This document shows positions 8,328 to 10,727 of a DNA stretch of 64,000 nucleotides, in pieces (position 1 is the first letter of the stretch; each line of letters opens with the position of its first letter). The DNA comes from Escherichia coli (GTDB taxonomy: Bacteria; Pseudomonadota; Gammaproteobacteria; Enterobacterales; Enterobacteriaceae), in assembly GCF_036507355.1 (NCBI RefSeq), contig NZ_AP027877.1; one strand, written 5' to 3'. A program made the position numbers and the translations under genes. The notes under the pieces were generated by a model. The model did no database searches. It had not been told where the DNA came from and was given only the letters and a program-made list of their open reading frames with translations.

Positions 8328-9401
8328 ATGGCAGAGAAAAAAAGAACCCGCTGGCAGCGGCGGCCAGGCACGACGGGCGGCAAATTACCGTGGAATGACT
8401 GGCGCAATGCCACGACCTGGCGTAAAGCGACGCAATTCTTACTATTGGCAATGAATATTTATATTGCCATCACGTTCTGGTATTGGGTGCGCTATTACGA
8501 AACGGCAGGTAGTACGACATTTCTCGCCAGACCGGGAGGTATCGAAGGCTGGCTACCGATTGCCGGTCTGATGAATCTGAAATATAGCCTTGCAACAGGT
8601 CAGGTACCGTCCGTCCACGCCGCCGCGATGCTGTTATTGGTCGCTTTTATCGTCATCAGTCTATTACTCAAAAAGGCCTTTTGTTCATGGTTATGCCCGG
8701 TTGGTACGCTTTCTGAATTAATCGGCGCTCTCGGTAACAAACTGTTTGGTCGGCAATGTGTCCTTCCCCGCTGGCTGGATATTCCTCTGCGCGGTGTAAA
8801 GTATTTGCTGTTGAGTTTTTTTCTCTATATCGCGTTATTGATGCCTGCTCAGGCGATTCACTATTTTATGTTGTCGCCCTACAGCGTGGTGATGGACGTT
8901 AAAATGCTCGATTTCTTTCGTCATATGGGGACCGCGACATTAATCAGCGTGACCGTTTTGCTGATTGCCAGCCTGTTTATTCGCCATGCCTGGTGTCGTT
9001 ATCTTTGCCCATATGGCGCGCTGATGGGCGTGGTTTCGCTATTATCGCCGTTTAAGATTCGTCGCAATGCCGAAAGTTGTATCGATTGTGGCAAATGCGC
9101 AAAAAATTGCCCATCATGGATCCCGGTCGATAAATTAATTCAGGTACGAACAGTGGAATGTACCGGCTGTATGACTTGCGTAGAGTCATGTCCGGTAGCC
9201 TCAACATTGACCTTTTCACTGCAAAAACCTGCGGCAAATAAAAAAGCTTTTGCGTTGTCTGGCTGGTTAATGACACTACTGGTTCTGGGGATTATGTTTG
9301 CGGTGATTGGTTACGCAATGTATGCGGGAGTATGGCAAAGCCCGGTGCCGGAGGAATTGTACCGACGCTTAATTCCACAAGCGCCAATGATTGGTCACTA
9401 A
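8328..9401 (+). CDS. yccM: Polyferredoxin-like inner membrane protein YccM (4Fe-4S)
   Basis: 357-aa ORF; multiple TM segments and CxxCxxCxxxCP ferredoxin motifs (CIDCGKCAKNCP, CTGCMTCVESCP). Confidence 0.9.
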   Translation: MAEKKRTRWQRRPGTTGGKLPWNDWRNATTWRKATQFLLLAMNIYIAITFWYWVRYYETAGSTTFLARPGGIEGWLPIAGLMNLKYSLATGQVPSVHAAAMLLLVAFIVISLLLKKAFCSWLCPVGTLSELIGALGNKLFGRQCVLPRWLDIPLRGVKYLLLSFFLYIALLMPAQAIHYFMLSPYSVVMDVKMLDFFRHMGTATLISVTVLLIASLFIRHAWCRYLCPYGALMGVVSLLSPFKIRRNAESCIDCGKCAKNCPSWIPVDKLIQVRTVECTGCMTCVESCPVASTLTFSLQKPAANKKAFALSGWLMTLLVLGIMFAVIGYAMYAGVWQSPVPEELYRRLIPQAPMIGH

Positions 9402-9416
9402 ATTAGCAACAAGCGG

Positions 9417-9442
9417 AACATCACCTCGCACGGGGTGATGTT
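9417..9442. terminator. Possible bidirectional terminator hairpin between yccM and gnsA
   Basis: Inverted repeat CATCACC...GGTGATG between convergent genes; weak T-run. Confidence 0.35.
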
Positions 9443-9449
9443 CACAAAA

Positions 9450-9623
9450 TCACATTATTTTGATTTTGACATCATAACTTTCAAGCCCGGTCATTTTTTC
9501 TCGCGCGGTGAAGCGAATTTCAGAGACTTCTTTCCCTGTATTCTTGTTCAGCTCGGCGATTTTTTGCGCGATAAAGTCGGCGATTTCCGTTTCGGCTTGT
9601 TTTTTTAACTCTTCAATATTCAC
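9450..9623 (-). CDS. gnsA: GnsA (overexpression raises unsaturated fatty acids), 57 aa
   Basis: Reverse translation MNIEELKKQAETEIADFIAQKIAELNKNTGKEVSEIRFTAREKMTGLESYDVKIKIM with GTG start; below ORF-track size cutoff. Confidence 0.85.
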   Translation of the reverse strand: MNIEELKKQAETEIADFIAQKIAELNKNTGKEVSEIRFTAREKMTGLESYDVKIKIM

Positions 9624-9843
9624 TGTTAACCTCTTCTGGTCTTGAAAGACAGCAACACGCCAGTAAGGTGTTGGTTCCCGGTACCCTGGTCAGGTAAGAA
9701 ATGTTATAAGCCATCTCCCCGAAAGATTCAATAATCAACAGGTTATCGCTTACTATACATACAGCGTTGAAGAAAAATAAGGCAGATATAAAAAAGGCTC
9801 CACGAGGGAGCCTGATATTATTTTGTGAAATCCAGCGGCGCAT
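9613..9843 (-). CDS. ymcE: Small protein YmcE (cold-shock cluster)
   Basis: ORF 9613..9876; recognised start MRRWISQNNIRLPRG at 9843 (76 aa); overlaps gnsA start by 11 bp. Confidence 0.75.
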   Translation of the reverse strand: MRRWISQNNIRLPRGAFFISALFFFNAVCIVSDNLLIIESFGEMAYNISYLTRVPGTNTLLACCCLSRPEEVNSEY

Positions 9844-10016
9844 GGTCAGTGCGTATTTGCAGCGCGACGTTATCAAAGGTGATCATCGTCGATTTACAAA
9901 AAATACACTTAGCGCCCAAAGGGTTTCGCTCCGTCACATCGAATGCCGATGTACGGTACTGTGAACCATGACAACATGGACAGCGGAAATGGAGATGTTG
10001 AGTAATAACGGCAACC

Positions 10017-10229
10017 TTAGAGCGTAACAACGTTCGCTGCCGCGGGGCCACGTTGCCCCTGCTCAATAGAAAATTCAACTTTCTGATTTTCGTTCAGCGT
10101 GCGGAATTCATTGCTCTGGATGGCGGTGAAATGGACGAAAACGTCTTTGCTGCCATCATCAGGAGTGATAAAGCCAAAACCTTTATCTGCGTTAAACCAT
10201 TTTACTAAACCAGTCATTTTATTAGACAT
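10017..10229 (-). CDS. cspG: Cold shock protein CspG
   Basis: 70-aa [26 protein letters not shown], classic CspA-family RNP motifs. Confidence 0.95.
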
Positions 10230-10514
10230 ATTTTACTTCCTTCATTTTGGGCCTTTCGGCAAACAGGGCTTTAATACAGAAACTACTTAGTGTTCAGGAG
10301 AGAGACTCAAAAGAAGGGGATAATGCCTGATAATGAGAACTGCTTTAGTAAACTACTTTGTATGCTGTCTGTCTTTCAAACCGACGCAGCTATTAACGCA
10401 TGATAATAGAGATTAAGCAAATTTTATTTTAGCCGTCCGGCGGTCTTAAATATCGCTGGCTTTATTTTATTAACCCCGTATAGTGCAGCGCAGTATTTTC
10501 AGTAAGGAATTTGT

Positions 10515-10727
10515 TTGTCCCGTAAAATGACAGGAATTGTCAAAACCTTTGATCGCAAAAGCGGCAAAGGATTCATTATCCCCTCCGACGGTCGTAAAGA
10601 AGTCCAGGTCCATATTTCCGCATTCACTCCCCGCGACGCAGAAGTGCTTATACCAGGATTACGCGTGGAATTTTGTCGCGTAAATGGCCTGCGAGGACCA
10701 ACAGCGGCAAATGTTTATCTCTCTTAA
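10515..10727 (+). CDS. cspH: Cold shock-like protein CspH
   Basis: 70-aa ORF (TTG start in track) [26 protein letters not shown]; CspA family. Confidence 0.9.

Follow-up and report, generated by a model that had tools for sequence, protein, structure and literature searches.

The ymcE reading frame of the Escherichia coli cspG–gnsA cold-shock cluster probably overlies a terminator and the predicted gnsA control region and probably does not encode a conserved protein

The question raised by this locus is how many of the small, overlapping ORFs packed downstream of cspG are genes, and in particular whether ymcE encodes a protein that partners GnsA. The cluster lies within a 64,000-nt stretch of an Escherichia coli genome (contig NZ_AP027877.1), referred to here as the window. 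It is the well-known chromosomal cold-shock cluster of E. coli, arranged as cspH and cspG back to back, followed by ymcF, the ymcE frame and gnsA. The region is 98–99.6% identical in 5,372 of 5,426 complete E. coli genomes, in which gnsA, ymcE, ymcF, cspG and cspH are annotated; RefSeq lists these genes in near-identical genomes. A previous sequence-only reading had named cspG, cspH, ymcE and gnsA, and these names agree with annotation and family models. It placed ymcE and gnsA downstream of cspG, but the gene directly 3' of cspG is ymcF, which it omitted. Its remark that small-protein annotation is uncertain in this region proved well founded. The account considered likely here is that of a known cluster in which ymcE is a non-gene frame, gnsA has its own predicted promoter and a 65-aa plus-strand ORF merely mirrors ymcF on the opposite strand. 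The features are listed in Table 1.

Table 1. Coordinates of the features of the cspH/cspG–gnsA cluster (positions of the window).
Feature	Position	Strand	Description
Inverted repeat	9416..9443	.	Perfect, 10 bp, 8-nt loop; between convergent yccM and gnsA
gnsA	9450..9623	-	57 aa, GTG start, GnsA/GnsB family
ymcE (sfa), annotated ORF	9613..9843	-	76 codons, ATG start
Putative gnsA leader	9624..9695	-	About 72 nt; AAGAGG Shine-Dalgarno at 9635-9630
Predicted gnsA promoter	9703..9731	-	-35 TTGAAT at 9731-9726, 17-nt spacer, -10 TATAAC at 9708-9703; inside ymcE
Plus-strand ORF	9767..9964	+	65 codons, TTG start; opposite ymcF (147 nt) and ymcE (77 nt)
Intrinsic terminator of the cspG-ymcF transcript	9787..9813	-	Stem 9813-9795 and T-run; from terminator scan
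ymcF	9818..10006	-	62 aa, four-cysteine (CxxC...CxxC), ATT start, TAAGG Shine-Dalgarno
cspG	10017..10229	-	70-aa cold-shock protein, ATG start
cspG 5' UTR	10230..10385	-	About 156 nt; cspA-type cold-shock thermoregulator leader, Rfam RF01766
cspH	10515..10727	+	70 aa, CspA family, TTG start; TAAGGA Shine-Dalgarno 5 nt upstream

The cspG gene product matches the NCBIfam CspG equivalog model at 179 bits (cutoff 144) and the Pfam CSD domain (E = 1.7e-33), and both RNP1 (KGFGFI) and RNP2 (VFVHF) are found in its translation. The cspH product is assigned by the NCBIfam CspH equivalog model (176 bits, cutoff 141), a Pfam CSD match and RefSeq annotation, which agrees with the TTG start; like those of CspF and CspH generally, its RNP motifs (KGFII, VQVHI) have degenerated. 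The divergent orientation of the two genes and their 285-bp spacer (10230–10514) are as previously described. That spacer had been called a shared control region; its length stands, but 156 nt of it are the cspG 5' UTR identified by Rfam. The RF01766 match extends over 9963–10385 (158.8 bits, gathering score 78; E = 7e-43), with model position 1 at 10385. The cold-favouring mechanism of cspA-type leaders is established for the family, and cspG would be transcribed with this 156-nt leader, favouring its expression in the cold. The arrangement resembles the cspB and cspF pair of the Qin prophage, in that a cold-inducible CspA-like gene with a long thermoregulatory 5' UTR diverges from a degenerate paralogue of the CspF/CspH type; there is no notable difference from the Qin pair or from the RF01766 leader at cspG and cspH.

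Coding potential was assessed by counting variable sites at the first, second and third codon positions (given below in that order) across seven Escherichia genomes, the counts being small because only seven genomes were compared. The cspG gene gives 5/3/23. For ymcF the counts are 3/0/18, and its product matches Pfam PF23641 at 166 bits and carries the RefSeq name "cold shock small protein YmcF". The ATT codon of ymcF lies 10 nt past the cspG stop, and both the codon and the 10-nt gap after the csp stop are invariant in all 15 loci compared. In three of these 15 loci there is an in-frame stop 7–8 codons upstream of the ATT with no canonical start in between. This comparison, together with RefSeq annotation, points to AUU as the likely start codon of ymcF, from which the protein would be translated off the cspG mRNA. 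The family comprises 137 clusters spread across Enterobacteriaceae; C9, C12 and C37 are invariant and C34 is near-invariant, in the motifs CPCC...CIFC. An AlphaFold2 model of YmcF built from a 40-sequence alignment reached a pLDDT of 57.9, too poor for a fold search. The earlier omission of ymcF is probably explained by its ATT start, and the gene illustrates how an ATT-start gene can slip past an ORF-based reading.

The terminator begins 5 nt past the ymcF stop and is composed of a 7-bp stem with five GC pairs followed by TTTTTT. Its predicted fold has a free energy of -12 kcal/mol (z = -3.75), and the hairpin and T-run are kept in the Qin, phage Tritos and Citrobacter copies of the locus. 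The cspG-ymcF transcript would stop mostly at this hairpin, which sits in codons 11–19 of ymcE, 30 nt into that ORF. The ymcF 3' end and terminator (9780–9860) also match RF02077 (STnc220) at 34.1 bits; the gathering score is 60, so the segment is not an STnc220 member by the Rfam criterion. STnc220 is an sRNA candidate of Salmonella, and its consensus translates to YIRSGQVPLDFRK and a stop codon, which is the C-terminus of the Salmonella/Citrobacter YmcF.

The gnsA gene product matches Pfam PF08178 at 122 bits (cutoff 27) over residues 1–54 and the PDB entries 4XO1/4XO2 at E = 1e-31. Its variable sites are distributed 7/1/17, and the GTG start, correctly proposed by the sequence-only reading, is conserved together with its Shine-Dalgarno. 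Upstream of gnsA, the elements TTGAxx and TAxAxx separated by a 17-nt spacer occupy the same alignment columns in front of gnsA or gnsB in Escherichia, Citrobacter and Qin, and they are predicted to form the gnsA promoter. The built-in promoter scan made no call upstream of gnsA because it demands a T at the last -10 position, and the TATAAC box came from the alignment. The predicted promoter corresponds to ymcE codons 38–47. Over the 126-nt segment made up of promoter and leader, the share of variable columns is 10%, compared with 32% for third codon positions (p = 8e-6). Despite this conservation the segment tolerates frameshifting indels: around 9685–9678 the leader accommodates a 1-nt deletion in genomes L006, L008 and L007 and a 6-nt deletion in L003. 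The fold of 9600–9696, which covers the leader, is no better than that of shuffled sequence (z = +1.08), and a riboswitch or thermometer in the leader was dropped as a candidate on this value.

Expression of gnsA would be driven by its own conserved promoter (TTGAAT, 17 nt, TATAAC) through a leader of about 72 nt, and read-through from cspG-ymcF may add to it in the cold. Published work has placed gnsA or gnsB alone on plasmids, where growth of several mutants was rescued and unsaturated fatty acids were raised, and this overexpression work suggests that GnsA modulates membrane lipid unsaturation. Persister assays used an inducible plasmid that overexpressed gnsA with no YmcE, and a strain deleted for gnsA has also been made. 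Both gnsA and gnsB were induced together as cells left exponential growth, which is not a cold-shock condition.

The ymcE ORF overlaps ymcF by 26 bp at its 5' end and gnsA by 11 bp (9613–9623) at its 3' end, the latter as previously reported. There is no Shine-Dalgarno in the sequence upstream of its ATG. In cspG, ymcF and gnsA taken together, 58 of 77 variable sites (75%) fall at the third codon position, whereas the unique part of ymcE gives 13/9/10, with 10 of 32 (31%) at the third position and nine indel columns besides (Fisher p = 2.6e-5 for the third-position share). In the 23 scored nt of the ymcF/ymcE overlap the counts are 1/2/5, with the changes falling on the ymcF wobble position. 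The 76-aa ynfN gene, found at this position in the Citrobacter and phage Tritos loci, served as a positive control; its counts are 27/10/55, and it has no indels.

Most E. coli sensu stricto have an open ymcE frame with an ATG start. None of the six non-coli Escherichia genomes keeps it whole: in each, the ATG is lost or the frame is truncated or shifted. The start is changed in four of the six (to AGG in L003, L004 and L006, and to ATA in L005) and the frame is truncated in four of the six, to 53 aa in L003, 66 aa in L006 and L008 (by a 1-nt deletion) and 32 aa in L007; a full-length frame without the ATG is found in E. albertii and one other Escherichia. Both ymcF and gnsA are intact in the genomes with a broken ymcE frame. 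In one Shigella lineage an IS4-family element is inserted inside ymcE, and gnsA is again intact. The match of YmcE to its own models (PF15939/NF007379, 186–187 bits) is near-circular, because the family is made up of Escherichia/Shigella copies of the same locus. YmcE forms 28 clusters, confined to Escherichia/Shigella, several of which are fusions or truncations. Member counts of the YmcE, GnsA, YmcF and CspG clusters are confounded by partial sequences and gene-calling pipelines and were not counted as evidence. A tblastn search of 50,697 phage records returned no match to YmcE, and did return matches to GnsA and YmcF.

With neither third-position bias, freedom from frameshifts nor a start codon kept in relatives, the frame lacks each of the marks of purifying selection that were examined, and ymcE is probably not a conserved functional protein-coding gene. 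The ORF most likely spans the end of ymcF, the terminator behind it, the scar left where about 300 nt with the ancestral ynfN gene were deleted, the promoter-like element and the gnsA leader, and the nucleotide conservation of its 3' half most likely reflects the regulation of gnsA and not a protein. Conservation analysis had been suggested as a check on ymcE and on the antisense ORF: gnsA, and also ymcF, behave as coding sequences, but ymcE and the antisense ORF do not. A lack of conservation of ymcE and gnsA had been named as grounds for refutation, and it is true of ymcE and false of gnsA.

Lambdoid phages carry the gene module of which the E. coli cluster is one copy. The copy in the cryptic prophage Qin reads cspF and cspB back to back, and cspI-ynfQ-ynfR-ynfN-gnsB. 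The Qin module and that of Escherichia phage Tritos share with the chromosomal locus the order and spacing of a csp gene, a 10-nt gap, a 62-aa ATT-start YmcF/YnfQ, a hairpin terminator and a 57-aa GnsA/GnsB, as well as promoter-like boxes and an AAGAGG Shine-Dalgarno before gnsA/gnsB. In lambdoid phages such as Tritos the module is located downstream of the lysis genes. The chromosomal Escherichia copy differs in lacking approximately 300 nt that bear ynfR and ynfN (76 aa when intact, as in Tritos and Citrobacter), with about 59 nt left instead, a remainder at the deletion scar that by chance does not close the ymcE frame. Six Citrobacter genomes keep cspG-ymcF-...-gnsA without ymcE, and no YmcE accompanies the module in Qin or in phages either. 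The possibility that YmcE is a diverged YnfN was rejected, as BLASTP yields no alignment between the two. A short in-frame "FFN" near the approximate position of the scar is the lone hint of a YnfN remnant in ymcE.

The alternative that fares best, although it is considered unlikely, is that ymcE is a genuine and very young protein gene of E. coli and its nearest relatives, translated from terminator read-through in the cold and perhaps serving as an antitoxin or antagonist of GnsA. The ORF is indeed intact in most E. coli, but it has no codon-position signature, and sister species with an intact gnsA carry indels and have lost the ATG. Its 11-bp overlap with gnsA resembles that of many coupled gene pairs, yet the ORF is without a Shine-Dalgarno, runs into a terminator after 30 nt and contains a promoter-like element midway. 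Published data show the sfa/ymcE RNA to be cold-induced, but the Sfa protein was unseen in the matched cold-shock proteomics. The paralogous ynfR of Qin, a 21-aa ORF that also lies across the equivalent terminator, has been seen as a tagged protein after cold shock, so read-through transcripts and translation across this hairpin do occur. The ASKA ymcE clone has a weak phenotype, a small effect on butanol tolerance. The pair is entered in toxin-antitoxin catalogues, and dedicated NCBI and Pfam models are kept for YmcE, but the GnsA/GnsB homologues of Citrobacter, Qin and phages lack a YmcE partner, plasmid-borne gnsA rescues growth instead of blocking it and was overexpressed without YmcE in the persister assays, and the Shigella IS4-family element interrupts ymcE beside an intact gnsA.

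A further reading, ranked below the young gene and regarded as quite unlikely, treats cspG-ymcF-ymcE-gnsA as one cold-shock operon, in which gnsA has no promoter of its own and is reached only by read-through of the hairpin (for example through Csp-mediated antitermination) and the conserved 126 nt are an RNA element. The four ORFs are tightly packed on one strand, and one phylostratigraphy paper gives ymcE-gnsA as an operon, but the -35 and -10 boxes, 17 nt apart, line up in Escherichia, Citrobacter and Qin, and the leader has no significant fold. The ymcE/sfa probes are cold-induced along with cspG, and the detection of ynfR amounts to read-through in the paralogue; against this, gnsA and gnsB are co-induced on leaving exponential growth, outside cold shock. 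The IS4-family element in Shigella splits cspG-ymcF from gnsA and leaves gnsA and the 180 nt upstream of it intact. More doubtful again is the proposal that ymcE is a de novo gene at its birth, in which the ynfN deletion would have joined the ymcF tail to a terminator and to the promoter and leader of gnsA in one frame of 76 codons, translated only from cold-induced read-through in E. coli sensu stricto, and the product would have gained a role in tuning GnsA.

The weakest candidate is the plus-strand ORF as a genuine antisense-encoded small protein, which is highly improbable: the window, K-12 and E. whittamii have it as an open frame with a TTG start, but it is cut to 19–50 codons in five of seven other genomes, its variable sites (21/2/4) concentrate at its first codon position, which is the ymcF wobble position, as expected of a reverse frame, it has no Shine-Dalgarno and no Pfam or NCBIfam match, and its exact sequence was not found in a collection of 15 billion proteins. 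By this comparison it is the shadow of ymcF and not a gene. It had been described as antisense to ymcE; the ORF exists, but the greater part of its overlap is with ymcF. ORFs of 65–76 codons are not unusual in the window, where several clearly spurious ORFs of 74–104 aa lie inside or opposite yccM and gfcA.

With ymcE taken as a frame overlying terminator and control sequence, its designation as an antitoxin has to be considered. This designation is reportedly traceable to a review table and to the remark in the GnsA structure paper that the protein "may be a toxin". Published lists give ymcE-gnsA as a type II toxin-antitoxin pair, with GnsA (PF08178) as toxin and YmcE (PF15939) as antitoxin. 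The two resemble such a pair in being small, adjacent, same-strand ORFs that overlap by 11 bp and both match Pfam. They differ from one in that YmcE is neither co-conserved with the "toxin" nor under coding constraint, the ymcE frame contains a terminator and a promoter-like element, and gnsA alone is tolerated on plasmids. Partners are expected to co-occur, but six Citrobacter genomes, Qin and seven phages have gnsA or gnsB and no ymcE, and ymcE is disrupted next to an intact gnsA in Escherichia species and Shigella. Primary evidence for the toxicity of GnsA or its neutralisation by YmcE was not found in the accessible literature, and the pair goes unmentioned in the Unterholzner 2013 review. 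Judged from the genomes compared, the "YmcE antitoxin" label is without comparative support.

Toxin-antitoxin catalogues, modelling papers and fold-switch predictions have taken over this label, which is carried by PF15939 and NF007379. The locus itself is already known, textbook E. coli, and curation of the label is possibly the useful point. As the ymcE ORF overlies the terminator and the predicted control region of gnsA, microarray or RNA-seq signal assigned to "ymcE/sfa" probably comes from the 3' end of ymcF and from the leader of gnsA, and deletions of "ymcE" would also remove the predicted gnsA promoter. Beyond the 3' end of gnsA, the inverted repeat has no T-run and was for this reason left uncalled by the terminator scan; it is probably a transcript-end hairpin.

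The segment belongs to the E. coli chromosome, with 98–99.6% identity to 5,372 of the 5,426 complete genomes and a top match in strain TB06052 (99.6%). The strain is not K-12, because the K-12 IS1D element between cspH and gfcA is missing. Window 10728–11167 holds no IS1, and the AT-rich region upstream of gfc (group 4 capsule) is uninterrupted, unlike in K-12. The cold-shock locus is known and annotated, and the sequence-only reading of it was correct for the most part, yet incomplete. Sequence and RefSeq annotation bear out the 285-bp cspG–cspH spacer, the GTG start of gnsA and its 11-bp overlap with ymcE; ymcF and ymcE overlap by 26 bp. The gene that directly follows cspG is ymcF, which had been omitted.

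Features of the cold-shock locus and related loci; window genes are from the RefSeq annotation of the matching stretch, moved to the window and checked against the sequence
Feature	Coordinates	Strand	Remark
yccM	8328-9401	+	
gnsA	9450-9623	-	GTG start
ymcE	9613-9843	-	
65-aa ORF	9767-9964	+	TTG start; present in sequence
Terminator	9813-9787	-	
ymcF	9818-10006	-	ATT start (10004-10006)
cspG	10017-10229	-	
cspH	10515-10727	+	TTG start
gfcA	11168-11473	+	
ynfN, 76-aa gene	L017 2099-2329		phage Tritos; also in Citrobacter L009, L011-L014
ynfN, K-12	L016 3955-4110		Qin prophage
ynfR ORF	L016 4189-4254		K-12 Qin prophage
IS4-family element	L018 1082-2749		Shigella, CP026807.1

CspG and CspH both score above their NCBIfam equivalog cutoffs. 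The spacer had been read as a control region of 285 bp; the length is right, but the Rfam full-length cspA thermoregulator matches cspG at 9963–10385 (158.8 bits, threshold 78), so 156 nt of it are cspG leader. The next gene, ymcF, is a real gene of 62 aa that matches Pfam PF23641, is intact in every sister Escherichia genome compared, and forms 137 protein clusters spread over Enterobacteriaceae. In a GnsA scan with one genome per species, the order cspG-ymcF-...-gnsA was present in 12 of 12 genomes (six non-coli Escherichia, L003–L008; six Citrobacter, L009–L014). E. coli genes very rarely start with AUU. Across 15 loci the ATT start shared by ymcF and its paralogue ynfQ never varies, and a Shine-Dalgarno motif, (T/G)(A/G)AGG, stands 7 nt upstream; the start was noted in the window, L002–L014, Qin L016 and Tritos L017. 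Start and motif are conserved along with a 10-nt spacing from the csp stop. In Qin, Tritos and Citrobacter L011 the frame is closed by a stop 7–8 codons upstream, and none of ATG, GTG or TTG occurs in between. Three of the four solid genes of the locus (cspH, gnsA and ymcF) have non-ATG starts.

Starting 5 nt past the ymcF stop is a terminator, composed of a 7-bp GC-rich hairpin (-12 kcal/mol, z = -3.75) followed by TTTTTT, which is kept in the alignment with Qin, Tritos and Citrobacter and spans ymcE codons 11–19. An Rfam match to the Salmonella sRNA candidate STnc220 at 9780–9860 (-) scored 34.1 bits, below the threshold of 60. One frame of the STnc220 consensus translates to YIRSGQVPLDFRK*, then a terminator. 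YmcF of Salmonella and Citrobacter ends in this peptide, so STnc220 appears to be the 3'-terminal part of a csp-ymcF mRNA. Aligning the paralogous modules gives the ancestral order as csp, ymcF/ynfQ, terminator, 76-aa ynfN, then gnsA/B. The distance from terminator to gnsA upstream region is ~59 nt in the Escherichia chromosomal copy versus ~363 nt in Citrobacter sp. R56; Citrobacter sp. NCU1 shows a similar deletion that arose independently. In Tritos and Citrobacter the 76-aa ynfN is whole and bears a clear coding signature; in K-12 Qin, a 1-nt deletion breaks it in two. The annotated 51-aa ynfN is the 3' part of this conserved gene (MKK(I/V)IVFFN...), and the Tritos annotation begins at an internal ATG.

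The conservation test proposed by the sequence-only reading was run on the window, K-12 and five full-length sister genomes. Variable columns at codon positions 1/2/3 carry a coding signature in cspG (5/3/23), ymcF (3/0/18) and gnsA (7/1/17). The part unique to ymcE (9624–9817) gave 13/9/10 plus nine indel columns, a third-position fraction of 0.31 versus 0.75 in the neighbouring genes (Fisher p = 2.6e-5), and changes in the ymcF overlap fall on the ymcF wobble position. As a control, the 76-aa gene at the equivalent position in Citrobacter and Tritos gave 27/10/55 and was free of indels over a much larger divergence. Three sister genomes have AGG in place of the ymcE ATG and one has ATA; in four the frame ends early (53, 66, 66 and 32 codons). 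ymcE has no Shine-Dalgarno motif. ymcE matches PF15939 and NF007379, models whose source sequences are this very Escherichia locus. YmcE homologues occur only in Escherichia and Shigella (28 clusters, several fused or truncated); tblastn against 50,697 phage records gave no YmcE match, while GnsA and YmcF match lambdoid phages. In a Shigella lineage, an IS4-family element encoding a 448-aa transposase is inserted in ymcE at the terminator, leaving ymcF and gnsA intact and yielding 20-aa and 82-aa "YmcE" fragments, the latter on record in 135 contigs. ymcE is therefore not supported as a gene. That it is young but real is unlikely, though granted some weight because most E. coli keep its frame open and Qin ynfR, which reads across the equivalent cspI-ynfQ hairpin and T-run, encodes a 21-aa protein reported as tagged and cold-induced (PMC6001520). 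Finding this protein implies that transcripts read through the terminator in the cold, and that translation over the hairpin can occur.

The 65-aa ORF described as antisense to ymcE exists, but 147 of its 198 nt face ymcF. It has no Pfam or NCBIfam match, its exact sequence is missing from a 15-billion-protein collection, and five of seven other genomes hold it only in a form shortened to 19–50 codons. Variable sites in it (21/2/4) concentrate on its own first codon position, the pattern that a real gene, here ymcF, leaves in its reverse frame. The doubt expressed over small-gene annotation was justified for ymcE and for this ORF, which is likewise not supported as a gene, while ymcF is real.

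gnsA (57 aa, intact in all sister Escherichia genomes) matches PF08178 as well as two solved structures of GnsA, 4XO1 and 4XO2. Downstream of the deletion scar, window 9736–9600 is colinear with the sequence upstream of gnsA/B in Citrobacter and Qin, where TTGAAT (9731–9726), a 17-nt spacer, TATAAC (9708–9703) and an AAGAGG Shine-Dalgarno align; the two boxes are a predicted gnsA promoter. In Escherichia, 10% of the columns in this 126-nt upstream stretch vary, versus 32% at third codon positions (p = 8e-6), yet it tolerates a 1-nt and a 6-nt deletion, a pattern that indicates constraint on DNA or RNA rather than protein; the fold of the gnsA leader was not significant. cspG and ymcF would form one cold-induced transcript ending mostly at the hairpin, and gnsA would be driven mainly by its own predicted promoter, with cold read-through as a possible addition. 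Reported effects of GnsA are shifts in phospholipid composition and in the degree of fatty-acid unsaturation.

ymcE-gnsA appears as a type II toxin-antitoxin pair in catalogues and modelling papers, a label that several observations speak against. Outside E. coli the two are not found together, the "antitoxin" ymcE lacks coding constraint, and the Shigella lineage with the IS4-family insertion in ymcE keeps gnsA. In the literature, plasmids carrying gnsA or gnsB on its own restored growth to relA fadR and lapC mutants and raised unsaturated fatty acids; an inducible plasmid has been used to overexpress gnsA by itself, and a mutant with gnsA deleted has been made. In the cold, sfa/ymcE RNA rose 3.2 log2, but matched proteomics did not detect the protein.

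Between the convergent yccM and gnsA, window 9416–9443 contains a perfect 10-bp inverted repeat (GAACATCACC / GGTGATGTTC, 8-nt loop). Neither strand has a T-run there. The repeat is probably a transcript-end hairpin common to both genes.
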